From Asterionella formosa (lineage: Eukaryota), in contig NKIB01015326.1 in the NCBI GenBank assembly GCA_002256025.1, positions 1-36,517 on the forward strand: 36,517 nt of DNA, in the 5' to 3' direction. This document shows positions 530 through 34,790 of this stretch, one piece after another. The position numbers and the translations under genes are program-made. How positions within the stretch are numbered: position 1 is the stretch's first letter; each line of letters starts with the position of its first letter. Under the pieces are notes generated by a model. That model was given only the letters and a program-made list of their open reading frames with translations, made no database searches and was not told the origin of the DNA.

Positions 530-1254
530 TCAGAGCAGTAGTCGTGGCAACCAAACAAGTGGTTGATTGGTGCTTTGGAGGACTCCGTGAATTCGGTTAG
601 AGAGAGGTTCCGGTTTTTTTTTAATCCATGCTCCATAATATATCTTGAGTCGGAGACAATCTGCTTTGGAAGGTCTCTCTACACAAACTGGGCCATTGGA
701 TTTCAGAAAAGCAGGGCGAAGAAGAATGCGGATCCTGTGCGATGGATCGGAAAGAAACCGTGGTTCTGGAATGTGTAGTGGAAGGCATCCTTTGTCGGTT
801 TTTTTTTACCATTTAATGTCCTTGGCCAATGAAAGTCAGACTGTAGATTTGATAATTCCTTATAGGACCATTTGGAGACAGCTCGAATTGTAGAATCATC
901 ATCACAGATGATTGTAGAGTAGATAACATTGTATTTAGTAATGGCATCAACCATCATTTCCAAACCCGCATCTGGTTCCATTGCCTTCGAACTTCCAGTT
1001 ACGTGATTCTTGGAGCAAACATGATGTTTCTTGTGCCGTACAGCCCTATCGCACACATTACAGACCTTTGACTTTACTCGATAGTCTAGGATCTTTCTCG
1101 TGTAGCCACCAATACAGAATGCATGTCCACTTACGGAGTTGTATTTATTCCCACTGGATCGCTGCTGCCATCCCATATCATAAGTAACGGTGAGTTGCGG
1201 CATATTGAGTACAGACATGCGTTCTGTAACAGGTAGACTATTCCACCACTGGAA
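530..1254 (-). pseudogene. Mutator-like (MULE) transposase remnant, 5'-truncated and frameshifted
   Basis: ORF 703-1218 has the motif order of Mutator-like transposases: YDMGWQQR..YNSVSGHAF, KSKVCNVC, CSKNH..GSSKAMEP, IICDDDS. Coding continues in other frames across two T9 runs (799-807, 614-622) as KGCLPLHIPEPRFLSDPSHR..DCLRLK and APINHLFGCHDYC. Confidence 0.8.
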
Positions 1255-1618
1255 ATGTTGATCGTATCATATGTATATATACATTCAGTGATGGAGAATG
1301 TTTACATATATATTTAGCGAATTCGAAAAGGAATCTATGTACGTACGCGCAAATTTCCACTGATTTAATTATATCAAATGGAATCACCTGCTGCATTTGA
1401 ACCCCTAGGCAAAAATTAAAATATTGCTTAGGGTTGCGAAAATTCCCTGGAATTAAGAATTAAATTAGCTATTCTTGAATGACGTGATTCCATTTGAAAT
1501 AATTAAATCAGTGGAAATTTGCGAATACGTACATAGATTCCTTGTCGAAATCGCTAAATATATATAAAGACACTCTTCGTCGCTGCCTGTATATATACGC
1601 TAAAAATACGATCAACAT
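1255..1618. repeat. Imperfect inverted repeat, arms of about 133 bp (1255-1387 and 1484-1618)
   Basis: For example gcaaatttccactgatttaattatatcaaatggaatcac on the left versus gtgattccatttgaaataattaaatcagtggaaatttgc on the right. Outer ends are atgttgatcgtat and atacgatcaacat. Confidence 0.9.
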
Positions 1619-2609
1619 GTATCCATGGACACTCTATACTCCGATTGACGATTTGAATGCGTTCGACATATTCAAATCGTACAATACATATACACAGATT
1701 TAGATTCTACATCGCTTAATGTGCATACACCACTACTACAATCTATATTCCGATCGACGACCATGGGTCATGTATACGACCCGGCGACTCGGCAAATATT
1801 TGAAAGTGCACTCAAGGAGCGGTACGCGTATGTCCTATGATGATCGTCTACTGGTACCTGGTACCAGTACCCTGGTACCCGTCGAGAATATAGAACCGGA
1901 CTGTCAGTACACAGAAGAAAATATTACATGTTTATACAATGTGGCCGGCGTGGGTTTGCAAGACCTCGCAAACCAGGCCAATCAAACAGAGGAACGAAAT
2001 TCACGTTCACCAATCATATTATATATGTGGAAGCGGGCACTTACAATGGAATTTTTTGGATAGGAGACTTTAGGACTAAAAATTCCGGCACACGACTACC
2101 ATTCCGATGATGAGCGGCACTTAATAATTCTGATTCCGATATTTTGGCGACCGTAGAAAAGGCCGATTTTGTCGAGTTTTTGGACGACGATACCTAAACG
2201 TTGGCTGGGTCTGACGGTGATTTAGATACATAGGTAACTTTCAAATGGCATCAGTATATAACTGTCTGGCGAGAAACTGCAGAAAGGAACTTCGGTTTTT
2301 TACTATGCCAAATAAACAGATTTCCCCCGAATTTTCGAGTCTTTTTAGCCTAGTTAAAAAACCGAAATTCCTTTCTGCAGTTTCTGACCAGATCCTATAT
2401 ACCGGGTACTGACGATACATAGAGTGGACCTAAACCCCCAACTTTGTCCGAAGACTGTATGTAAGCATACGGATAGGGTGTGTATTGGTGAAAGCTCCGT
2501 TGAGCGTTATACACATCTATTTTGTACGTGAAAAGTACGTGTTTGATTTGTCTGACTGAATATTATTTTTTAAACCCTACCTCGACCTAGGGGTTCAAAT
2601 GCAGCAACC
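1389..2609. mobile_element. Non-autonomous TIR element of about 1.2 kb, possibly PIF/Harbinger-like; left tip lost
   Basis: Perfect 21-bp inverted pair tgctgcatttgaacccctagg (1389-1409) and cctaggggttcaaatgcagca (2586-2606). The right end continues acc then TTA. No convincing internal ORF; several internal hairpins. Confidence 0.6.
2255..2400. repeat. Imperfect fold-back hairpin inside the TIR element
   Basis: agaaactgcagaaaggaacttcggttttttacta pairs with tagttaaaaaaccgaaattcctttctgcagtttct. Confidence 0.85.
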
Positions 2610-2781
2610 TTAAATAAAATTACTCCCTCTCCCTGATAACAGTTGCATTGATGATTCAAATTCTCCGGGGCCATTTTTGACTCCTACATACCATTTTCTC
2701 CAGTTCCATTGCCCTATGTGCGGCTTCTCTGTAAGTCGTGATCTTAACGGAGTACAAAATGGAAAAATATGGTGCTTGACC

Positions 2782-2943
2782 AAAATTTTTGGTGTCTCCA
2801 ACATCCAGGAGATATGTTGCTTCCAGCTGTTGGCTATTATATCATGAGCAAAATGCAGATGCATGAGGACCAATTCTTCTTCGAGCCACCTATTCTCAGT
2901 ATACATATGAAGTAGAAATTAACAAGAGAATATATGCAACTTG
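2782..2943 (+). repeat. 162-bp direct repeat, copy 1
   Basis: Near-identical to 5182-5343 (about 3 substitutions seen), offset exactly 2400 bp. Confidence 0.95.
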
Positions 2944-5086
2944 CATTCAATTATGAATTGTGCAACTGTGAAAATGGCGATGATGGGAAGGACGAAAACA
3001 ATGGTAGTATGGCATGCTTGTTTTTGATGATTGGAACTGTTTAATATCTGGCCCCCTGTTTAACGCTAAGAGGCCAGCTCATGGCAATAGCATTTGGCAG
3101 TATGTAGATTTACTGAATGTTAAGTTCCAAAATAAAATTAAGTATGCGTTATGGAGCCTCGACTACAGTGGAGTTCATTTTGTTGCAGCGGGGTGCAAAG
3201 CACCTGGCTTTGAATAAACAAAAGCTACATGTTGTGAGCAGGAGGGCGGGGGCATTGCATTGGATTATGTATTGTTTAATAGAGCCTTGGCGTTGTTTCT
3301 CATGCGCGGTTTGAGAGGCTAAGACATTTTTATCAGTTGTGTAGAGGCAGGATAAGCCAAGCTTCCATTGCGGAAGGAATGTGGAGGTGGCAGTGGCTAA
3401 GGGGAAGACCAAATAAGTGATTCTGATATGCTTAACAAGATGGTGGTTTTGGTAGGCAGCGTGTGTCTGACATTAAGTGGCAAGTGTGTTTGGCTCGGTT
3501 GGTCTGGAGAGTAGCGCCATGGATGAAGGAATGAATTTCGTTCATCCCAGTATGCATCTGTTGATGGAACTTCGCAAGCTTCTATCCCTGATAGGTTGTT
3601 ACTCTTGGGCATTCTTTTACCAGTTTCATGAAACAGTTGACAACGATTTGATCTTCCTCAGGTAAATTTTCTAAATCATAGCTCGCTTTCTTTAACCAGG
3701 CATTGTACTAGCAGAGCATCCCCTCGAATAAGGCATGAAAGTTTCGAATTTCTTGATTGGTCATACCACTTTCTTCTTGGCATACAGTTGATACCAAAAC
3801 GGAAATATGGATCATTGGCTCACAATATCCAATAAATCTTTGATGCCCTGGATAAATAACATGCAACTTAATTTTACAAACAATACAAATTTGTATGATG
3901 TGCGTCGAGGCACCAAGCCTGCTCCTCAATTGGTTTACAAAAATGTTCAATGTCAATGAAAAATTATAAAATTGTGTATATCATTCATTTGTCATCCCTC
4001 ACCAGTAAACCAATATGTTACAAATGTCAAATATTGTCGGTATTACACATGCCACGAGATGTTTGAATTGCACAGAAAATGCCGAAGATGCATAGAACGG
4101 AGATTTGGCTATCCTGATGCACCAATTTGACGCAACAGTGTACATCGTCGCTAGGCTTAAAGACTTGCGCAGTGTCAGGGTAAAATTGTAAAATTGAAAT
4201 TTTTGCATAAATAAATCATTTCTCATCCTTGACCAGCAGTAAACCAACATGTTGCAAGTGTCTCCTTGTGGTTGTCGTCATTGAATTACCCTGAATGTAC
4301 GAATCACACAGAAACCGAGAAAGACATGATGATAGAACAAATTTTCATCAACATGATGTACCAGAGTTAATACCCTTCTTCTAAATTTTTTTTGGTGATA
4401 TTTATCTTTTTGGCGAAGAAAAGAAATCTCAAAATTATTGAAAATGTTTAACTCAATCAAACGATTTTAAAAATAACAAAATCCAGGTGTTAACTTGTTA
4501 TTCTAATAGAAGTCTAGTGAGTCAGCCAGTGCTTAGACCATTTTGAGTAACCATTGGTTATGCCCTCTCCTGCTTGTCTTTTTTCTTCGAAGTCACAATT
4601 GTAGCCTCAGAAATTGTTCCGGACGAAACTATTTGCAAGACTGTGCCAGATGTTTTTGTGTAGATTGGCTGTACGTCGTTGTGGTACAAAGAAGAAGAAA
4701 TGGCTGCGCCAGGCATTTTGATCATCTGAGTTTATAAAAACAACAGTCAACACCACAATGAACAATATCTTTCCAACATGGTTCAACCCTTACAACCAGT
4801 GTCCCCCTTCCAGCTTTTTAGCTGCCTCACTATTAACAAATCCTTCATCAACTGATATACTGTATGCTGCCCCAATAGAAGGTGGAATGACGCAACATGG
4901 AGATCCGCAATGGATTTTTTAAGATATGATTAATTTGCTTACTATATATTTTTATCATATCACCAAGCCAGCGATATCTCATATTGTTGTTCTCTACCTT
5001 CTTCATTTGACATTTGAACAGGCTTTTTCAATAAAGGAGTGTTCCTTTAAAAGCAGGAGTGATAGAACAAGGTGAAATGCATGATA

Positions 5087-5122
5087 TATATAGATATATA
5101 TATATATTTATGTGTGTGTGTG
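5087..5122. repeat. Imperfect (TA)n/(TG)n microsatellite
   Basis: Read directly from the sequence. Confidence 0.7.
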
Positions 5123-5181
5123 CTGCTTTCTGTTGTAGCTAGTAGTTCTATCGAATGAATTACTGACACGCAGTTGCTATG

Positions 5182-5343
5182 AAAATTTTTGGTGTCTCCA
5201 ACATCCAGGTGATATGTAGCTGCCAGCTGTTGGCTATTATATCATGAGCAAAATGCAGATGCATGAGGACCAATTCTTCTTCGAGCCACCTATTCTCAGT
5301 ATACATATGAAGTAGAAATTAACAAGAGAATATATGCAACTTG
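5182..5343 (+). repeat. 162-bp direct repeat, copy 2
   Basis: aaaatttttggtgtctccaacatccagg...gagaatatatgcaacttg matches 2782-2943. Confidence 0.95.
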
Positions 5344-6139
5344 GCAGGTGAGATCAAAGAAATATGTCAGAGCAGAAAAAATAATAAATGAATCGGAATT
5401 GGCATTTTTCTGTTCAATTATATGGTGAAACCAGCATAATAATGCTGTGGAGCATCGTAATTTTGCCATTATACTGTCACAATGGCTAGTTCATCAATAC
5501 ATGATATCTTCACAAGCACACATAATTATTGGTGTGCCCATATGATTATTTGATAAGTGAAATAAATGTTGTATATCACATACATTTGGGATTGACCCAA
5601 ATAAAATCCGAAAAAAGTAGCATAATATTTTAGGAAAGTAACACAAATATGTCACTTTAATAATGAATTCGAAAAAGTGCCTAAAATGGCCTCTTCCCTA
5701 AATGTAAAACTCACCGTTGTGCCATGGTTAGAAAGCTTCGTTCGAGGCACCATGCAATGACATATGCATCGTGAAATGAAAAGTAATGAATAACATGCGT
5801 TGTTGGTTGGGGAGAGATATAATTTCTATATTACTCTGATGATTGTTTGATTATATACAGTAGGTGTGTACAATTTTGTAGTATTGGTACTTTATACCAA
5901 ACTAGATAATTATATACTAGAGGCTACAGGGCAACCTAAAGCACCCCTCTGCTTGAATCCAGCAATGCGGTAGACTAAATTATATACCCAGTAGCTATAC
6001 TCGGTACCACCTAAACACTGAGAGTCATACAAACTTTTAGTTTTGTACTGATAATCATAAAAAGGGGTAATCACACGGTTTGAGGCGAATATTAATCATA
6101 TTAAAAATCTGTATTAGACAAAGTTCTTCCTTTGCCTGT

Positions 6140-18413: not shown

Positions 18414-18971
18414 ATTGAGGCAATTCACAAACTAGTTATTGTTGCGCCATTTGCTTGCATACTGCCCACTCATTGAGTATAAATGTCAATTTCAGCTTGC
18501 TATAGCCCGCCATTATATAAAATATATTTTGTATATTTCGTACCTTCACATCGAAATTTGCAATGGTTCCAGTATTTCCCATCATTAAAACATATTTGGT
18601 ATAGTTCAAATGTTCGCATTCCGGCAATAAATTTTATGCTGATTGCCCCTCAGTTTTCCAGCCCTGGGATTGCTGAAATTGGCAAGGGGACTACTTAAGG
18701 AAACCATTTTATATACTCTACAGATTTGATTAAAATATATCTATTATTCACCTTGTTATTGTTCGTCGCCAGGAAAGTGACTCCGGCAATTCACCTTTCA
18801 CCATGCTGATCATCGTTCCTCATGACCAGTCTGAAGCGAAATGGGTTTATTGATAACACCAGTAGCGATTCATTGTCAGCTAAATGCTGCGGTTGGTTTT
18901 TGGATTCCTTGTCTTCTTGTTGGATTCACGTAGTCGCATTGTACATATTTCTTTGGAATGATGATTATGAT

Positions 18972-19314
18972 TGTTGGAAAAATGCGAGCTGACTGCCACA
19001 GGACAGGAGTGAGCGAAGGGTATAGTAGAAACGAGAGAGAACAGTACAGTAAAGCCGGTACCAAGCTGTACCTGGGCTGACGTGGTAAAAGGCACGACGC
19101 AAGCAAAAGCAATCAGAGGTCAGGAAATGTTAAAATGCAATGTGAGTAATAAGAGTGTTTCGTGACCATTATCTCGAAACAATCCAGTTAGTACTAAAGT
19201 GAAAGTTTAAGTTGACGACTTCTTCGTTGCTATCAATTTCATCAACTGTATTCGATTGACACAGTACTAGGTTCAAGGCCTACAATACGGTCGATTACGG
19301 TAGTTGAACCAACA
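18972..19314 (+). repeat. 5' LTR (343 bp)
   Basis: tgttggaaaaatgcgagc...gttgaaccaaca. Carries a 46-bp segment (19081-19126) absent from the 3' LTR. Confidence 0.95.
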
Positions 19315-19328
19315 TTGTTTCGAGATAA
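19314..19328 (+). promoter_or_regulatory. Primer-binding site position, complementary to the element's own LTR rather than a tRNA 3' end
   Basis: attgtttcgagataa is the exact reverse complement of ttatctcgaaacaat (19169-19183). No TGG start. Confidence 0.8.
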
Positions 19329-22139
19329 AAAGAAAAGAAAAGAAAAGGAACCAGCCGTTTTGAGACTCACATGGAAGGCTGGAGTTTCGACATCTCAATC
19401 GCGGAATTGAACATTTTATAGATTCGAGTAGCGCAGCTTAGGGCCGCAGCCACCAACAATCAAGGAACCAACAGCAACAATTTGAAGAGATTTGTTTTTG
19501 GCTTCTAAAACAGATCAAGTCGATTACTTTACAGTTCGATCAGAGCAGGAACGGTTTCATTGCACTTTTGGACGCTCAGACCAGTTTCCTCACTTGTCGT
19601 CAGTTACAAGGACAGTCCGCAGAAGACTACGTTGAGTGTTTGCAAGGATGGGCTGAGACCATCGAGTACCATGGCGGCACCGTGGCAGCAAATTATAAAC
19701 TGGTACCCTTCCAGGATCAGGACGGGAATGGGTGTAGTATTGAAGAGCGAAAGGAGGTCGCGCGTGAACGCACCCTCGCAATCGCTTTGATTCGAAGTGC
19801 TGACCCCACCAGGTATGGCACCCTCATCGCTGACCTATCAAACCAGTATGCAATGGGAAATGACCAGTACCCCACCGATTTGCTGTCAGCCCAAAGCCTG
19901 CTTGTCAACTACAGAACTCCAATGAACACCAATGTCAGGACAGATACACCACGCACCCAGCCGACTGGAAGCCCTGAGGCCAGTGCAATGACGTTTGGGC
20001 AACGCGGCGAAATCGCAGGCAACAATGGAGTGGTACACGATGGCATCATCTGTTACAACTGCCAAAGCCTAGGACACTACGTGGGAGACTGCCCTGACAG
20101 GCAGGGATCGACGACCTCAGGCACTACATTGATGCAGTATGCATACATGCTTGCACAGGCCGGCGACCCTGGTATTGATCCTAAGTGGATCCTTCTCGAC
20201 TCGCAGTCGACAATCTCCGTGTTCAAGAACGCCGACATGCTCAGCAACATCCGGCGTAGCTCTCATGTACTCAGGGCGCTCACAAACGGGGGTTACCAGG
20301 ACTCCAACATGGTAGGAGATTTTCCCAACTTGGGTAAGGTTTGGTACAATCGTGAATCAATTGCCAACATCCTCTCCCTTGATGAGGTGCGCAAGGTATG
20401 CCACGTCACCATGGACTCTGCGGACAAGCCAGCGATGCTTGTCCATAGACTCGATGGAACTGTGATGAAATTTTTTGAGCACCCCTCAGGACTATATGTG
20501 TTTAGTTGTAACAACGATACAAACGACAGTGTTACAGGTTATACCATGCTATCCACAGTAGCAGAACAGAAGAAACTATTCTCACGACGTGAAATTCAAT
20601 CAGCCAATGCAGCCAGAGATTTGTATAGAAAGATCAGGCGGCCTGCCGAGGCGGAATTCCAATCCATCCTATGGAACAACTTGATTATAAATTGCCCAGT
20701 CACGCCAGACGACGCCAAGCGCGCCCTCATTATTTACGGTCCAGACATCGCTGTCATAAAAGGTAAAACTACGCGGTCGCACGCTGCCCCAAGAGCGCCA
20801 ACATTTGTGGCTGAACCGATTCCTGCCCCAATCCTGGAGCATCACCACAACGTAACATTGTGCGCCGATTTCTTCTTTGTGCAGGGTCTACCATTTTTTC
20901 ATACCATCTCACAGGGCATTGGTTTCCGAACCGTGGACCTGGTTCCCGACCGGACCAAGACTACCATTCTATGCAAGATTCGGAGTGCGGTCCGCCTCTA
21001 CCCCCACCTACGCGGTTTACAGGTTCGTGATGTGCACGCTGACCGTGAACTCGAGTGCGTTTGTGAGGACTTGCAACCTATCGCATTAAACATTGTACTT
21101 GCCGACAGTCACGTTGGTGAAGTGGAACGTTCCATCCGATCCATCAAGGAGCGACTACACTCGTGTGCACACGGCCTACCTTTCAAGCGTCTTCCACGGG
21201 TGATCATCAATCATATGGTGATCGATGCCATTCGATGTCTAAACCAGTTCCCATGTGCAAACGGCATCTCAGACACCATGAGCCCTGCATACATTGTCAC
21301 GGGCGCTGCCAACCCAGAATACAACCAAATGCGCATTGAGTTTGGGGCCTATGTCCAAGTTTTTGAAGACAATGACCCATCCAACAGCCTTCAAGCGCGT
21401 TCCCTCGGGGCAATTGCCCTTACCCCCACTGGCAATGCCCAAGGTGACTACTACTTCATGTCTCTTGCAACCGGAAATAAGATTTCCCAACATAATTGGA
21501 CGGAGTTGCCCATGACAGACACCGCCATTGCCCGCATGGAGGCGCTCGCGGCACACAAGGGGCAGCCCCCCATCCAGGCCAGAGGCCTAGTTGTAGAATG
21601 GCGCGCCGATCACCACATTGACAACGACGAATACGACCGGGACTATGAGCCTGCCGCACGCCAACCTATTGACGATTTTAACCCTGCGGATTTTGATGCC
21701 ATCGATGATCACGAAGTTGCCGATCTGCTCCATGATGGGCCACACCCTACGGCTTTGGACGATGCACCGCTAGTCGAGCCAAATCCAGGAGACCCAAACA
21801 CGATCGATATTGATGACGTCGCGCTTGTCTATGATGACTACATACAACAATAACACGACGAAGACCACCAAGGAGCGCACCTGGAACAAGGGGCGCCTAT
21901 CGACGAAAACCAAGGAGCGCCTGTGGAAGAAGCAGCGCTCTTTGAAGAAGCCAATCAAGAAGCGGGCTCTGACAACGACTACGAGGTGGCAGACCAAGGA
22001 GCGTTGGCGGAAGAACACAGACCATATAATCTCCGACAATGGGCAGCCACAAGTGAACAGTTCAAGCAGGCAATTGATGCACCGCATAGCAACAAGTCAT
22101 ACTTTCCACACCAAGACAGTTTGTCCAACTCGGATTTCG

Positions 22140-22200
22140 AACAATGATGCCATATGCAGATGACGGACTCCAAACAACGATGCCATATGCAGACGACGAC
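22140..22200 (+). repeat. 33-bp tandem duplication in the INT-RT linker
   Basis: aacaatgatgccatatgcagatgacg and aacaacgatgccatatgcagacgacg. Confidence 0.85.
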
Positions 22201-23840
22201 ACAAGTAAACATATTTTTGGGTATGTAATGAACCAGATGACCGCGAAGGCGGGAATAAAGAAACACGGGAACGCCCTGATGAAATAATTTGCACAACTAG
22301 AGAAGCTGGATGTGTACGAACCCGTAAGCGCGAACTCCCTTACCAGGGAACAGAGGATGGGAGCGCTCCGAGCCATCAATCTCATCAAAGAGAAGAGAGA
22401 CAGGCGCCTCAAGGGGCGTACAGTAGCCAACGGGAGACCGCAGCGATCACTTTATGACAAGTCGCAGACGGCATCTCCAACAGTATCCACTGATGCACTC
22501 ATGTTGTCCATCATGATTGATGCACATGAAGGAAGAGATGTCGCCACAGCAGACGTGGTGGGTGCGTATTTGAAAGCAGATATGGATGATTTTGTTGTTA
22601 TGAAATTCACTGGTGAATCAGTCGATATATTATGTAACATGAATCCAGAGCACACGAATTTTGTGTCCAACGAAAAAGGAAACAAAGTGTTGTAGTATGT
22701 CAGGCTAGTGAAAGCGATTTATGAGTGCGTCAAGTCTGCCCTACTATGGTATGATTTATTCCACAACACCCTAAAAGAGATGGGTTTTGCGTTAAACTCT
22801 TACGACTCTTGCATTGCTAACTGCACAATCAACGGGAAGCAGTGCACAATTGCGTGGTATGTAGACGACAACAAGATTTCGCATGTGGACCCAGACGTCA
22901 TGACATCAATTATCGAGAAAATTGAGGAGCGCTTTGACAAAATGACTGTCACCAGAGGAACAGAGCATATTTTCCTGGGTATGCACATATGATACACAGG
23001 CAAGGGCACAGCTGTCATTACTATGAAGGAATAGCTTCCTTTGAGCAAGTCAGGGATGGAAATCACACGGGAAGTGGCCACGCCAGCCCAGAAGTGTCTA
23101 TTTGAAGTGGATGAGGAGTCTCCATTTTTGAGCCAGAAAGAAGCCGAGATTTTCCATAGTGTGGTGGCCAAACTGCTTTACATTTCGATCAGGGCAAGAG
23201 TGGATTTGCTATTGGCGGTCAGTTTCCTATGCACCAGGGTTTTAAAGCAGCCACCAAACAAGATCAGAGAAAGCTACGACGGGTGTTGGAATACATCAAT
23301 GGAAGTATGGATGTGGAATACACCATTGTAGCCGATGACATGGGCAAGATGAGTTCGTGGGTGGATGTGGCATTTGCCGTGCACCCTGACATGAAGAGTC
23401 ACACCGGAGGCGTGATGTCTTTTGGAACTGGAGGCATCGTATGCAAGTCGACCAAGCAGAAATTGAACACAAAGAGCTCGATGGAGGCTGAATTTGTGGG
23501 TGCCAGCGATTATCTCCCAAACATGCTGTGGGTAAAAATGTTTCTTGAAGCACAGGGATACAAGATCCAAGAAAGTTTCTTCGAACAAGACAACGAGAGC
23601 GCAATTAAACTCGAAGAACGGACGAATTTCGGCAGGGCCAAAGTCTTGGCATATCAACATCCGCTATTTCTGGATTAAGGATCGATCGGTAGATGAAGGA
23701 ATCACCATTCGCCATTGTCCAACGTTGGAAATGTTGGGGGATTTTTTATGAAAACACTGCAAGGAAACCTGTTCAGAACATTCCGGGACGTGCTTCTAGG
23801 AGCTGCACACGTCGATACCCTGACTGCCAGTTCCCTGGCA

Positions 23841-23854
23841 ACAGCCGAGGAGCG
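23841..23854 (+). promoter_or_regulatory. Putative polypurine tract
   Basis: acagccgaggagcg lies immediately before the 3' LTR; only moderately purine-rich. Confidence 0.55.
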
Positions 23855-24146
23855 TGTTGGAAAAATGCGAGCTGACTGCCACAGGACAGGAGTGAAGGGT
23901 AAAGTAGACACGAGAGAGAAAGTACGGTAAAGCCGGTACCAAGCTGTACCTGGGCTGAATGTTAAAATGCAATGTGAGTAATAAGAGTGTTTCGTGACCA
24001 TTATCTCGAAACAATCCAGTTAGTACTAAAGTGAAAGTTTAAGTTGACGACTTCTTCGTTGCTATCAATTTCATCAACTGTATTCGATTGACACAGTACT
24101 AGGTTCAAGGCCTACGATACGGTCGATTACGGTAGGTGAAACAACA
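23855..24146 (+). repeat. 3' LTR (292 bp)
   Basis: tgttggaaaaatgcgagc...ggtgaaacaaca. About 6 substitutions and 3 indels (46, 4 and 1 bp) versus the 5' LTR. Confidence 0.95.
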
Positions 24147-25546
24147 ATGATGTATCTGATGTTGGTGGCAAGCTTTTGCTCCGGTCATTTATGTGCTCAA
24201 AGGATATTCTAGTTGTATATCCTACATACATGCATGGTACTAAAAACAACTATGCATGGCTTAAGATAAACTTTAACGCATACTTTGAACATGCTATAAT
24301 ATGTATGCTGTAGACTTGGTATCATTCACATGTTCATTGATTTTACATTTGCCCGATTTCGTCCTCACAATTATAATTCTCACTCTATCCTGCCTGCTGT
24401 TGCTCAATTCAGTCTTACAACAGGGACATTTCGACTTTCGTTTGATACCATTGTCTGCTGATTGTTATGCTAGTTCGATTGGATCGGTGAGTATAACAGT
24501 GAAACATGCATGTAGATACTATTTGTCCAATTTGCGATTTGATTGCTTCCATTGTCTGTTTCGATCGCTTCCATCATTGTTTGTCGTTCTGTACTGTTGT
24601 TTAGGTTCAAACTCTTTGAAGATGTATTGTTGTTGATCTTATTTGTTGATTTGTATAGTTGTTGACCATGATGTCAATATTGCTGCCAAGCAATACTTTT
24701 CTTGTACTAATGCGCCTTGCTACCTTTCTACTCAGAGTTTGTATCATAAGCTATGTATCAATATTCAGCTTGAGGGAGTCAATAGTGTAGCAGCCTGGCA
24801 ATCATGCTTGCTAAGAATAGAATGGAATGATCAGGGTTGTTTGGTGGGAGGAACGACTGTGAGCGGAACCACTCCTGCTACTTGGTTGTGTCTGGCTACA
24901 GCTAGCTATGTGCATGGTTGCAGCAACCAGATCATCTACACTACATAACAATGCAGATTTCAGTTGGGCTACGCTTTTTTTGTTCTGTTCTTTATTATTT
25001 TGCTCATTGATTGTGTGATGGCAAGTCAATGTTGGCTGTGTAAGTACTAAAATGCATTCATCTCCACTGAAACTCCTATTTTTTACTTCATTTCTAACCC
25101 AAAACAATTTTTTCTATTTCTCGTTTGATGCTAGTTATTAGATTGCATATCATACTTTGGTTGCTCCAAACATCATGTTCAATTTTCATTGATATTGCAT
25201 GTTACAATCATTCTTGTGCATTTGATGTTTGTGTTACCATTTCTATGCATACTACCATTATTCTGGCTGTCACGCTAAAATCTGCAATTTTAATGCCGAA
25301 AAGTTCCATGTGAACCATATTGCCCCTGAATAAAAATTACTTAACCAATTACCTAGAGCCTAAAAATTACTTGTAAGTACCCAAGCGGCACAGCAATAGC
25401 TGGAACGGAAATTTCCTGAAAAAATAATTGAAAAGAGCAATGGGGACATGAATAAGGATTAGTTTCTAGGTCTCCTCTTAAATTGATTGATATTTCGCAT
25501 TGTGTGACTGATATCATCATAATGAAAGTACAAATAAGATTTGATG

Positions 25547-28397: not shown

Positions 28398-29751
28398 TTA
28401 ATCTACTGCAACCAACAACACCGCAGTTGCTATCAGAGCTCCCCCAAGATAACCGGCTGGGCCCAGCTTCTCCCCCAGAAGGCCAAATGCAAAAAGTGCA
28501 GTGCACAATGGTTGAATTGTATAGATCAAATTGGCTGTGATAGGCTCAACACGCGATTGCCCAAATGACTGAGCTGTTATGGTATATGCCACGGGTATAA
28601 GCCCAGTCCATATGACAGCCCCGATTGTGGGGTATAGTGCTGACATTGAAATTGAACCATCTGAGAACGCCTCTGTCAAAGAAGTGACATAATTAAATAT
28701 TTCCTGACCTGCATCCACAGCGTAACCCATCGACCCGTCCTTGGAAGCCCCAGCCAAAGACAACAAAGCCAAGTTAAAAGAGAGACACAGAATCAACTCA
28801 GTTGTTGCCTTTGCTGCACCAAGTTTGATAGCCGATGTTTCCTTCGCAAATTGCTCAAGTCGGATGCAGTGAAATGTATATGAGAAGGCAGCGGCAACAA
28901 TCAACCAGTCGCCTTGTGAAAGATTTTGAAGAGACGGTAGAGACATGGACAAATCGCCTTGTGAAACCTCCTGCCCGTCCAAACCGATGACTGCAACTCC
29001 GAATAACGCGACGAAGCAAGCAGCCCAAGTTTTGAGAGAAATAAAGGAAATGTCAAGACGAATTGCAGCTTGTACCAAGGGTACAAAAATCTATTAAGGT
29101 TCGGTAAGTGTTAGGAGATTTTAGAAGTTTTCGAGGTCTGCAATGTATACTCACAGTTGTTAATTGAAGTAGAAATGCAGCTCGATCAGATGGAACTGTT
29201 TGCAGACCGATAACTTGTAGCGCATTACCAAAAAATAAATATGAGCCAAGTTCAAGGCCTCCTCGTATGGGCAGAGTTCTTCCTTCGCACTGCACTGACT
29301 TTTCAACACTGTCGGCACCTCTTGGATGATTTGTATCAACTAGTGTTAACAATAATAGTGAAACAGCTGCTACCAGATAGTATCCGGCAGAAAAGACAAG
29401 CCCAGGCATTGCTGGCTTAATAGCGTATACATATCTGACTGCAGGCTCAAACGTTCCCCATGCCAATGGAACAGTTAGAAGCACCAAGAGACCGACTTTC
29501 CTCTCATTTGACGACTTGTAGTCTTCCTTTAAACTTAAAAATCTTGCGCTCGTCAAAGTCACTTTACAGCATGCTCCTTTCGAGTCGATGCACATTAGAC
29601 TATTGCGATTATATTGTGCTCTGCTGCTCGAAGAACATCGATTCATAAATTTCTTGAGAGGCGAGGATAGCTTGCTAACTTGCAATGAGTGAGATAATCC
29701 AATAAACGCAGTCAACAGTAACATGGGGATCCATCCTCTTGCCGTGATCAT
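28398..29751 (-). CDS. EamA/DMT-family transporter, paralogue 1 (exons 29751-29155 and 29090-28398; 64-bp intron; 429 aa), possibly plastid-targeted
   Basis: VPLAWGT, GGLELG.YLF.GN.LQ.IGL..V.SDRAAFLLQLTT|IFVPL, GDWLI, AYTI.AQSFGQ, ANLIYTIQPLCTALFA..LLGE. Donor ACT|GTGAGT, acceptor TTAATAG|ATT. Signal-like N-terminus followed by a Ser/Lys/Arg-rich stretch. Confidence 0.9.
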
Positions 29752-30545
29752 CGAATATCTCAATATTGTGCAAGAACCAAGAGCTAAAGAATGATTGACA
29801 AATTATTGTTTTGTTGCTGTCAGCACTGCTCCAACTGGTTTTTCGTTTTTCTCCGTGATGCTTTCGATGTCAGCGGATTTGAGCGAAACGATGGTGAGTT
29901 TACTCTTTTCAATTGCCGGGGTATATTTCTTTTAAGGGGGTGTGAGAAACGGGGTTGATCCATTGGTCACATCCCAGGCTACAGTAGAATTAAACTTTTG
30001 GTAAACATTTTTCTCTTTGTCCAGCAACAATTGGGTTTGTCGTGATTTGCAATGCAGCTGTTAATATTGTGTTTCCACTTTCCTTTACTACGGACGAAGG
30101 GTGATGTGATTACCGGTAGTTATTTTACACATACATAATAGCCATCATATGTGTCATATATCACCAGTCCAACCAACAAAACAATAATTTGTCAATCATT
30201 CTTTAGCTCTTGGTTCTTGCACAATATTGAGATATTCGATGATCACGGCAAGAGGATGGATCCCCATGTTACTGTTGACTGCGTTTATTGGATTATCTCA
30301 CTCATTGCAAGTTAGCAAGCTATCCTCGCCTCTCAAGAAATTTATGAATCGATGTTTATATAATGTTTAATTCTACTGTAGCCTGGGATGTTACCAATGG
30401 ATCAACCCCGTTTCTCACACCCCTTGAAAAGAAATATAACCCAGCAATTGAAAAGAATAAACTCACCATTGTTTCGCTCAAATCCGCTGACATCGAAAGC
30501 ATCACTGAGAAAAGCAAACAAAAGACCGGTTGGAGCAGTGCTGAC
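29634..30545. repeat. Complex inverted duplication A-B-spacer-A'-B'
   Basis: A (29634-29816) is the reverse complement of A' (30174-30356), 183 bp, no mismatch seen. B (29819-29995) is the reverse complement of B' (30365-30545), roughly 90% identical. Confidence 0.93.
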
Positions 30546-34187: not shown

Positions 34188-34790
34188 CAATTGAATTCGT
34201 TAATTCGTTAGAAAAACAGCTGTTGCATATTTTAATATTCAGTGCATCATGTCGCCATAGTGCTTCAAATTGAGATTTGCCGCAATGGCCTTCTCCTGTT
34301 CGGAGCGGATACAAATAGTCTACAGTGATAACTCCAACAAGTACAATATAGAAAAAAGGAAAGGATGAGTAGCTGAGAACAAGTAAATTCGTAAATTCGT
34401 TTTGAAACAGCTGTTGCATATTTTAACATTCAATGCATGTCGCCATACTAGTGAGTCAAAATCGAGATGTGCCGCAATGGCCTTCTCCTCTTTGGAGCAG
34501 CTACAAATAGTCTACAGCGATAACCTTAGCGAGCACAATACAGAAGAAAGAGAAGGAAATTATGAGTAGCTGAGAACAATTGAATTCGTAAATTCGTTAA
34601 GAAACAGCTGTTGCCTATTTTAACATTCAATGCATGCATGTCACCATACTAGTGCTTCGAAATTGAGATTTGCCGCAATGGCCTTCTCCTTTCCGAAGCA
34701 GCTATAAATAGTCTCAAGCTGTAACTCTAGCAAGCACAATATATCAAAACAAGCACTTTATGACTAGCTGTCAATGATTGAATTAGTAAA
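34188..34790 (+). repeat. Tandem repeat, 3 units of about 192-198 bp
   Basis: Units start near 34188, 34380 and 34577. Shared blocks aaacagctgttgc.tattttaa, gccgcaatggccttctcct, aaatagtct, atga.tagctg. Followed by (tcagtaata)x3 at 34791-34817. Confidence 0.92.

Follow-up and report, generated by a model that had tools for sequence, protein, structure and literature searches.

Self-primed LTR retrotransposons have been described in fission yeasts, where Tf1 and Tf2 of Schizosaccharomyces pombe and Tj1 of S. japonicus, all members of the Ty3/gypsy superfamily, use their own RNA as primer (PMC4600332, PMC5341516, PMC5445492). Self-priming as such is not new for copia elements either, since it was already predicted for the TAR lineage of plant Ty1/copia elements (Houba, Osr-1) by the rule of Neumann et al., in which at least 10 bp of the 5' LTR are complementary to sequence that begins 0-5 bp downstream of the LTR (PMC6317226). 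The fungal GalEa copia elements have no tRNA-type primer-binding site (PBS); in its place they are reported to carry a conserved hairpin site, made up of a palindromic 9-bp site at the LTR border and a hairpin, for which the authors found no complement in the LTR (PMC5445492).

In diatom genomes the main mobile DNA consists of copia-like elements, of which some are activated by stress; the CoDi groups described by Maumus et al. (2009) are about 5-8 kb long and have short LTRs with TG/CA ends (PMC2806351). Nowhere in its main text does that paper mention a PBS, tRNA or self-priming. We found no description of self-priming in diatoms in the literature, nor could we find there the earlier proposal for a diatom copia element that the original prediction for this locus had mentioned.

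The window analysed here is a stretch of 36,517 nt from the diatom Asterionella formosa. It contains a Ty1/copia retrotransposon at 18972-24146, with the 5-bp target duplication ATGAT on both sides. We read it as a defective copy of a diatom element whose lineage probably primes its minus strand with its own RNA and not with a tRNA, in the manner of Tf1, and from the sequence comparisons given below we put the probability of this reading at about 0.78. The parts of the element are as follows.

18967-18971, no strand: target-site duplication ATGAT, left copy, identical to 24147-24151
18972-19314, plus strand: 5' LTR, 343 nt, TGTTGG...CCAACA, from self-BLAST and alignment with the LTRs of the relatives L001 and L002
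19372-19422, plus strand: short upstream reading frame of 16 codons and a stop, common to L001 and L002
19442-21853, plus strand: open gag-protease-integrase remnant of 803 codons, without a start codon
19473-19491, plus strand: deletion scar, from BLAST of the element against L002
22288-23678, plus strand: reverse transcriptase / RNase H region, split over several frames, with RVT_2 on two pieces
23847-23854, plus strand: candidate polypurine tract gaggagcg, adjoining the 3' LTR; this role is suggested by its position
23855-24146, plus strand: 3' LTR, 292 nt, TGTTGG...CCAACA, with its own copy of the primer arm at 24001-24015
24147-24151, no strand: target-site duplication ATGAT, right copy

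Self-BLAST matched the two LTRs in two blocks, 18972-19094 with 23855-23971 (90%) and 19126-19314 with 23958-24146 (98.4%). An LTR length of about 190 nt was rejected, as it corresponds merely to the 98%-repeated part of the full 5' LTR. The alignment of LTRs showed that a 46-nt piece absent from the 3' LTR is carried by L001 and L002 too, and the motif gaggagcg precedes the LTR in both of these relatives as well. With the start site predicted below, the 5' LTR would be divided into U3 (18972-19168) and R-U5 (19169-19314).

Placement in Ty1/copia (Pseudoviridae) follows from the TG...CA LTRs with a target duplication, the RVT_2 matches and the position of the integrase before the reverse transcriptase. 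Sequence profiles matched a zinc knuckle alone in the 803-codon frame (zf-CCHC, residues 203-218) and detected no integrase there, and a PDB sequence search with a gag-integrase profile returned zinc knuckles only and no integrase. Because the sequence searches gave zinc knuckles only, the integrase was shown by fold search: residues 430-720 have the predicted fold of a retroviral-type integrase core followed by a C-terminal domain (pLDDT 85.4), and Foldseek found the SIV and RSV integrases with a probability of 1.00 and an E value of 2.5e-09. RVT_2 follows downstream at 22288-22992. Its two pieces (E 4.3e-07 and 4.1e-06; 30.2 and 27 bits) fall just under the gathering cut-off of 31.6 bits because the frame is broken, and the intact relatives L002, L054 and L015 score 68.5, 60.3 and 71 bits, respectively. 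The last pieces of the 22288-23678 region appear, from a reading of their letters, to be RNase H.

Compared by BLAST with intact L002, the element lacks 537 nt (596-1132 of L002, including its first ATG at 603) at the scar 19473-19491, and RNA contigs have loose ends at 19472 and 19492, the edges of this scar. With its gag start deleted and its reverse transcriptase region frameshifted the window copy is dead, and for this reason nothing works at the locus now. What follows concerns the lineage, as seen through the leader of this copy and of its relatives. The leader and LTR features are listed below.

19156-19165, plus strand: copy of the PBS letters at the U3 end, just 5' of the predicted start
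19167-19168, plus strand: CA dinucleotide directly 5' of the arm, initiator-like; predicted start at 19168 or 19169
19169-19183, plus strand: putative self-primer arm, predicted first 15 nt of the element RNA, exact complement of 19314-19328 and covarying with it
19268-19282, plus strand: possible small U5 hairpin over a conserved motif of the type GGTTNARGRCY, from minimum-energy folds
19314-19328, plus strand: putative PBS, its first base being the last base of the LTR, without TGG
19329-19350, plus strand: A/G-rich run 3' of the PBS, read in the sequence

Positions 19169-19183, which lie in the LTR about 130 nt upstream, match the 15 nt at 19314-19328 (attgtttcgagataa) exactly in reverse complement. 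When sites for this 15-mer with up to two mismatches were sought in the window three were found, namely the PBS on the plus strand and the arms 19169-19183 and 24001-24015 on the minus strand, against a chance expectation of 0.13; no shuffle out of 100 reached three. The arm/PBS pair is the sole perfect inverted repeat of its kind within the element, and with 15 exactly complementary nt that begin on the last LTR base the window has what the rule for self-primers describes, that is, at least 10 nt of the 5' LTR. The predicted fold of RNA 19169-19345 is closed by the arm/PBS helix at -45 kcal/mol (z = -3.56), with none of 200 shuffles equally stable. A point that counts against self-priming concerns the completion of the LTR end, since in elements with a 15-nt pair the terminal LTR base is already taken up by pairing with the final primer base.

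The strongest evidence comes from related elements, for which 79 related metagenome loci were scanned over their whole length. A perfect pair of 13-16 nt is found at the same place in 32 of them (15 nt in 24 loci, 14 nt in six, and 13 and 16 nt in one each), and its 3' arm begins on, or directly after, the terminal A of the LTR in all 32. These loci have no other perfect inverted repeat of at least 14 nt with a loop of up to 450 nt anywhere in them. Sixteen loci have an internal direct repeat, and the pair is seen in every one; in most relatives the PBS is followed by an A-rich run. Among named homologues, those closest to the window protein come from the diatom Fragilaria crotonensis, and across the clade gag-integrase identity to the window protein is as low as about 32%. 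Neither Pfam rve nor gag_pre-integrs gave a match in the diatom proteins, which suggests a distant lineage.

The window included, there are 22 distinct arm sequences. In an alignment of 21 families and 15 pairs (315 pair cells), pairing was Watson-Crick in 99.0% of cells, compared with 68.9 +/- 1.8% in shuffles (0/500 as high), and it dropped to 39-52% when the partner was slid by 1-3 columns. Changes on both sides were present at 12 of the 15 pairs, in 86 cells, with no one-sided changes and not a single G:U pair. RNAalifold independently recovered the arm/PBS helix from the alignment, and the helix closes the minimum-energy fold of each of the 22 representatives folded. A decayed copy, L069, has mismatches and one G:U in the pair, as would be expected where selection or re-copying has ceased. 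By these comparisons the pairing is shown to be kept by compensatory change across a deep clade, and the compensatory change that marks self-primed elements is seen here in natural covariation alone.

The claims on which the original prediction was built, namely perfect complementarity at the LTR end, the absence of TGG behind it and self-priming of a copia lineage, fared well: the first two were read again in the sequence, the complementarity also by the 15-mer search, and the third gained support from the compensatory changes at 12 of 15 pairs that the prediction had proposed to look for. It had also named loss of the complementarity in intact family members as a sign to the contrary. The complementarity is kept in L002, which belongs to the window's own family and has one frame of 1710 codons, and in 31 further relatives; frames of at least 1600 codons are present in at least ten pair-bearing loci, L002 among them, and no intact relative without the pairing was found among the 79 loci.

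The same comparisons bear on classical copia priming, in which the PBS would bind a tRNA or tRNA half and the match in the LTR would be incidental. Such priming has its precedents, as half-tRNA primers are known in several copia lineages (PMC6317226). Here 12 of the 15 PBS positions vary from family to family, the PBS always matching its own LTR, so that no shared tRNA explains its letters. TGG is absent after the LTR of the window, a scan of the window and of 20 of the 79 loci revealed no tRNA genes, and Rfam gave nothing at threshold in 18900-19600, where it returned three snoRNA-like matches below threshold (E 0.23-0.91). Judged by the missing TGG and the variation of the PBS, the element does not appear to be a tRNA- or half-tRNA-primed copia, and we regard this explanation as extremely improbable.

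Another possibility is that the helix serves the RNA in packaging, dimerisation or translation control while something else does the priming; long-range helices of the 5' leader are known in other retroelements. Such a role would not account for a 3' arm placed exactly on the border of LTR and internal region in 32 of 32 loci, after which no alternative PBS candidate (TGG) is present. A helix needed only for its shape should also tolerate G:U pairs, which are missing from all 315 cells but are many in the neighbouring U5 hairpin, where UG occupies 16 of 21 cells at one pair. We consider a helix of this other kind quite unlikely.

A primer derived from the element could also act in trans, if the PBS were to anneal with another RNA copy in the particle, through that copy's 5' end, or with a short RNA derived from the LTR. 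The covariation demands only that arm and PBS pair and is silent on whether one molecule is involved or two, and the loop between the arms varies from 79 to 177 nt across the relatives, as though no fixed fold-back geometry were needed. Set against this, both arms always lie within this distance in one LTR-leader unit, their helix closes the minimum-energy fold in 22 of 22 representatives, and the primer of Tf1 is reported to be cut from the same mRNA (PMC5341516). Priming in trans therefore seems to us unlikely, and priming in cis by the RNA's own 5' end is the reading that we follow below.

Self-priming in cis would place the start of transcription at the arm or one base before it (19168 or 19169), with the arm as the RNA 5' end. 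All 24 representatives have a CA dinucleotide directly before the arm. The diatom initiator-like motif TCAH+1W, with +1 on the first base of the arm, fits 19 of these and YCAYTYY fits 13, the motifs being those of PMC4686930, the source of TCAH+1W, and PMC3599244. The context in the window itself, CCATTAT, matches neither motif fully, which counts against the self-priming reading. Of the promoter and stem-loop claims made originally only part stands. The TATA-like taataa is present at 19147-19152, but in relatives the 45 nt before the arm, read by eye and without scoring, show no conserved TATA-like box. The stem-loop of ggttcaa (19270-19276) and ttgaacc (19304-19310) exists in the 5' LTR; neither the 3' LTR of this copy nor the same-family loci L001 and L002 have the same letters in its 3' half, and the stem is absent from the minimum-energy fold; it was rejected.

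RNA data came from assembled contigs of four metatranscriptome runs, the only ones to contain the family, each with 8-12% of the sampled words. Over 18900-19700 the contigs pass from the 3' end of the internal region through the whole LTR into the leader; as the two LTRs are joined in the assembly, no 5' end can be seen in them. Two X4 contigs start at 19157 and one X1 contig diverges before 19156; these ends were rejected as start sites and taken as assembly breaks, since the palindrome around the predicted start begins there.

Two further features of the LTR were observed. The copy of the PBS letters at the U3 end forms a stem with the arm, of 10 nt in L002, 12 nt in L012 and 14 nt in L028, and position 19163 within it is T in the window and A in the relatives and RNA contigs (T>A in all four runs). 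The small U5 hairpin at 19268-19282 paired in 77.4% of cells as compared with 71.7% in shuffles, of which 13 of 500 were as high, and this weakly suggests a hairpin.

The following course of events is proposed for an intact member. The RNA would start at or one base before the arm, and its 5' end would fold back on the PBS, so that a loop of R-U5, 79-177 nt long, is closed. RNase H of the element would then cut behind the arm, which in the window means between 19183 and 19184, and reverse transcriptase would extend the 15-nt RNA through U5 and R. As in the general retroviral scheme, plus-strand strong-stop DNA would copy the primer, and the PBS would be rewritten from the arm in each cycle. 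Such rewriting could account for the strictly Watson-Crick pairing without G:U.

A broader proposal can be put forward only tentatively, and as a whole we find it more doubtful than probable. A deep clade of diatom copia elements would do without host tRNA, with a 15-nt primer beginning at initiator position +1, a PBS rewritten in each cycle, strictly Watson-Crick pairing and joint drift of arm and PBS; in a sub-clade the third copy of the PBS letters, at the U3 end, would perhaps mask the primer sequence in the 3' R or in read-through RNA.

The priming mode tells which transcripts can move, as only those starting at the arm could do so. Finders of PBSs that are based on tRNAs would miss or mis-annotate such elements, and the arm/PBS rule offers a simple way to recognise family members and their 5' ends in metagenomes. 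With 22 different primer/PBS pairs, all perfect, the comparative support for self-priming is unusually clean for elements outside fission yeast, and the missing G:U pairs lead one to predict that the primer serves as template for the PBS, which can be tested.

How, then, does this element compare with the described systems? It shares with the CoDi groups a diatom host, a Ty1/copia-like make-up, a length within about 5-8 kb, TG/CA LTR ends and short LTRs; for membership of one of the CoDi groups 1-7, the host group is the one point that fits. Like GalEa, it is a copia element without a tRNA-type PBS that has a self-complementary feature at the PBS position. Unlike the GalEa site, the window 15-mer is not palindromic and has its partner in the LTR, so it is not of the GalEa type. 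The TAR lineage belongs to the same superfamily and was the subject of the same kind of prediction, by a rule that also describes the window, although its hosts are land plants and ours is a diatom. Tf1, Tf2 and Tj1 likewise have, in place of a tRNA-type PBS, a post-LTR site complementary to a stretch of the same LTR, which in them is the start of R and here is predicted to be, and the fold-back, RNase H cut and extension proposed here are the steps described for those elements. The superfamily is a different one, the window element having its integrase before the reverse transcriptase and an RVT_2-type enzyme, and the host is a diatom. The arm has 15 nt, and the Tf1 primer has 11 nt. Self-priming was proven experimentally for Tf1, whereas for the diatom element the evidence is comparative alone. 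If the reading is true and the diatom clade is related neither to plant TAR nor to Tf1, then self-priming either arose several times or is an old state of LTR elements.

At the primer-binding site (PBS) position of the copia element, all 15 bases of 19314-19328 (attgtttcgagataa) match the reverse complement of 19169-19183, the 5' arm and predicted start of the element RNA. No TGG directly follows the LTR, and a taataa stands upstream at 19147-19152, all as the original prediction had it. Searched on both strands with up to two mismatches, the 36.5-kb window holds three sites for this 15-mer, against 0.13 expected by chance, and none of 100 shuffles reached three:

19314-19328, + strand, PBS position
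19169-19183, - strand, arm in the 5' LTR
24001-24015, - strand, arm in the 3' LTR

When RNA 19169-19345 is folded alone, it is closed by the 15-bp arm/PBS helix (-45 kcal/mol, z = -3.56). A ggttcaa/ttgaacc stem, noted there too, exists in the 5' LTR. Its 3' half is not conserved, however: the 3' LTR of this element has other letters, as do L001 and L002, metagenome loci of the same family, and the stem is absent from the minimum-energy fold.

The element belongs to Ty1/copia, as the integrase lies upstream of an RVT_2 reverse transcriptase (RT), the latter in broken pieces. The 98%-identical repeat 19126-19317 / 23958-24149 was rejected as the whole LTR, which extends further upstream: 18972-19094 and 23855-23971 are 90% similar, and in both copies the first base of this similarity is the first of TGTTGG. 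A 6-bp inverted repeat (TGTTGG / CCAACA) marks the LTR termini, and these ends, together with the ATGAT flanks, delimit an element at 18972-24146 whose LTRs measure 343 and 292 nt. A 46-nt piece missing from the 3' LTR is present in the 5' LTR, L001 and L002.

18967-18971 and 24147-24151, ATGAT flanking both element ends
19442-21853, frame of 803 codons without a start codon, with a zinc knuckle

Residues 430-720 of this frame have a predicted fold (pLDDT 85.4) of a retroviral-type integrase core plus C-terminal domain, for which Foldseek returned SIV, RSV, HIV and foamy-virus integrases (E 2.5e-09, prob 1.00). The window copy is dead; its RT region is frameshifted, and 537 nt of L002, first ATG included, are missing between 19472 and 19492. 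L002, with 93-94% internal identity to the window, has a single open frame of 1710 codons (567-5696) that enters its own 3' LTR (start 5453) by about 240 nt. A 16-codon upstream reading frame, 19372-19422, lies between PBS and gag and is shared by the window, L001 and L002. The closest named proteins come from Fragilaria crotonensis, a diatom (identity 59-66%), and the closest protein-atlas cluster with taxa is Bacillariophyta, which makes a diatom the probable host.

The window has other repeats as well. A perfect 183-nt inverted repeat (29634-29816 / 30174-30356, spacer 357 nt, with further arms 29937-29995 / 30365-30423) lies amid ORFs that carry EamA-like transporter domains and resembles an inverted duplication of recent origin. 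A long interrupted palindrome of six nested arm blocks of 11-25 nt (1255-1618) adjoins an ORF on the - strand, 703-1218, with a Mutator-like transposase domain (E 2.9e-32). Two 162-nt direct repeats (2782-2943 / 5182-5343; 98% identity) lie 2400 nt apart with only short - strand ORFs between them, and 34241-34741 is a tandem array whose period is about 197 nt.

A profile search of a metagenome collection with the gag-integrase frame confirmed 492 relatives from 608 candidate stretches, and the best 79 loci (32-94% identity to the window protein) were each scanned whole for perfect inverted repeats of at least 12 nt. A perfect pair was found at the LTR/leader border in 32 of the 79 loci, and in 16/16 loci having an internal direct repeat. 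Among the 32, the 3' arm starts on the terminal A of the LTR-end ...AACA or right after it, with the 5' arm 79-177 nt upstream; the scan yielded no further perfect inverted repeat (at least 14 nt, loop up to 450 nt) in these loci. The arms differ in length and comprise 22 distinct sequences, window counted:

Arm lengths and examples of arm sequences
15 nt, 24 loci
14 nt, 6 loci
13 nt, 1 locus
16 nt, 1 locus
TTATCTCGAAACAAT, window, L001, L002
TTAAATCGTTTGAAT, L008
CTTTCAAGAATTAAT, L015
TTCTTTTTGATTAAT, seven loci
TTCTGTAAAGATAA, three loci

Contigs L001, L004, L011, L012, L016, L030, L038 and L049 are circularly permuted, with an internal 3' end, one LTR, then PBS and leader. This is likely due to the assembler merging two LTRs; such contigs are usable for the pair test and are not evidence for tandem or circular DNA.

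The 47 loci without a perfect pair were inspected for LTR-end-like motifs and compared with the leaders of the positive loci. Five of them (L006, L007, L019, L020, L035) have a PBS-like stretch after ...AACA preceded by at most 107 nt of contig, so that the 5' arm would fall off the contig. L069, which belongs to the seven-locus family, retains the two arms, but their pairing is interrupted by two mismatches and a single G:U; it looks like a decayed copy. In L063 gag is deleted and no LTR-leader junction is recognisable, L005 has lost its 5' end, and in the other 39 the junction was not found. Elsewhere in the 47 loci the same motif gives 6-12 of 15 complementary bases by chance. Loss of the complementarity in intact members, which would have spoken against self-priming, was not found in any intact example among the 79 loci, contigs lacking the region being uninformative.

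Compensatory changes were sought in an alignment of 21 families, one sequence each (A5), from the CA preceding the 5' arm through two bases beyond the 3' arm; L016 was omitted, since each of its arms lacks one base at matching positions, which disrupts the column register. Standard pairs fill 99.0% of 315 cells (15 pairs x 21 families), against 68.9 +/- 1.8% with shuffled partners (0/500 as high) and 39-52% with partners slid one to three columns. The innermost pair of L044, L054 and L057, all of the 14-nt class, accounts for the three unpaired cells. Two-sided changes occur in 12/15 pairs (86 cells), bearing out the expectation of compensation, and one-sided changes in none of the 315 cells; the helix therefore contains no G:U. 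RNAalifold predicts it unprompted from A5. A small U5 hairpin (19268-19282; A5 columns 119-129) over a conserved GGTTNARGRCY-type motif appears in the folds of most families; its pair test is weak (77.4% paired vs 71.7% shuffled, 13/500 shuffles as high), and in contrast to the PBS helix it is rich in G:U.

Compensated, conserved pairing thus lies exactly at the PBS position, with no tRNA-type site. Since the PBS varies at 12/15 positions and tracks its own LTR, priming by a tRNA is excluded in practice. A purely structural helix, with something else as primer, is disfavoured by the position of the 3' arm and by the lack of any G:U. That the pairing is strictly Watson-Crick suggests something beyond selection for helix stability. 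In reverse transcription generally, the primer is copied by plus-strand strong-stop DNA, and by such copying an arm change would be written into the progeny PBS.

The conserved, compensated pairing supports the proposal that this copia lineage self-primes, and we put the probability that the element's own RNA primes its reverse transcription at nearly four in five. The simplest reading is the Tf1 scheme, in which the first RNA bases pair with the PBS, are released by the element's own RNase H and are then elongated by RT (PMC5341516, PMC4600332, PMC5445492). Here the RNA would start at the arm, which would anneal to the PBS; RNase H of the element would cut after the arm to free the primer, and RT would extend it. 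Priming in trans by the 5' end of another copy fits the data just as priming in cis does, and we consider it improbable.

The sequence context of the putative start was compared among representatives. CA directly precedes the 5' arm in 24/24. TCAH+1W, which has been proposed as an initiator-like motif of Phaeodactylum genes, fits 19/24 with +1 on the first arm base; the oomycete initiator YCAYTYY fits 13/24 (PMC4686930, PMC3599244). The window context, CCATTAT, is a full fit to neither. Such context bears on the start only indirectly. RNA libraries from both fresh and estuarine water contain the element family; public RNA consists of assembled contigs bridging the whole LTR, so 5' ends are not visible in such data. 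Among the differences listed for RNA contigs none falls within either arm, with coverage thin at the PBS.

One sub-clade carries the PBS letters once more in the final 7-14 nt of U3, up against the initiator-like TCA, which puts the predicted start site in mid-palindrome:

19156-19165, third copy of the PBS letters just before the 5' arm; likewise in L002, L012, L013, L028, L004, L011 and L016

This third copy covaries with arm and PBS, and U3-end/arm stems of at least 9 nt occur in 5/23 representatives against 5/1150 shuffles. One speculative role would be masking of the primer sequence where it occurs in the 3' R or in read-through transcripts.

Tf1 and Tf2 are established self-primers, and the mechanism has also been proposed for Tj1, for Tcn1 elements and for the Tf1/sushi group; among Ty1/copia elements it is predicted for the TAR lineage of plants, to which Houba and Osr-1 belong (PMC6317226). 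The site of fungal GalEa copia elements is a palindromic hairpin, unlike that of the window (PMC5445492). No description of the PBS or priming of diatom copia elements was found in the mainly open-access full texts covered, and a note on the subject may have been published elsewhere; the main text of the paper on CoDi, the diatom copia groups, mentions neither tRNA, self-priming nor a primer-binding site (PMC2806351). The comparative support for self-priming is much stronger than one single complement would be, and what would be new here is that a known mechanism serves a distant clade of copia elements in a host group new to it.
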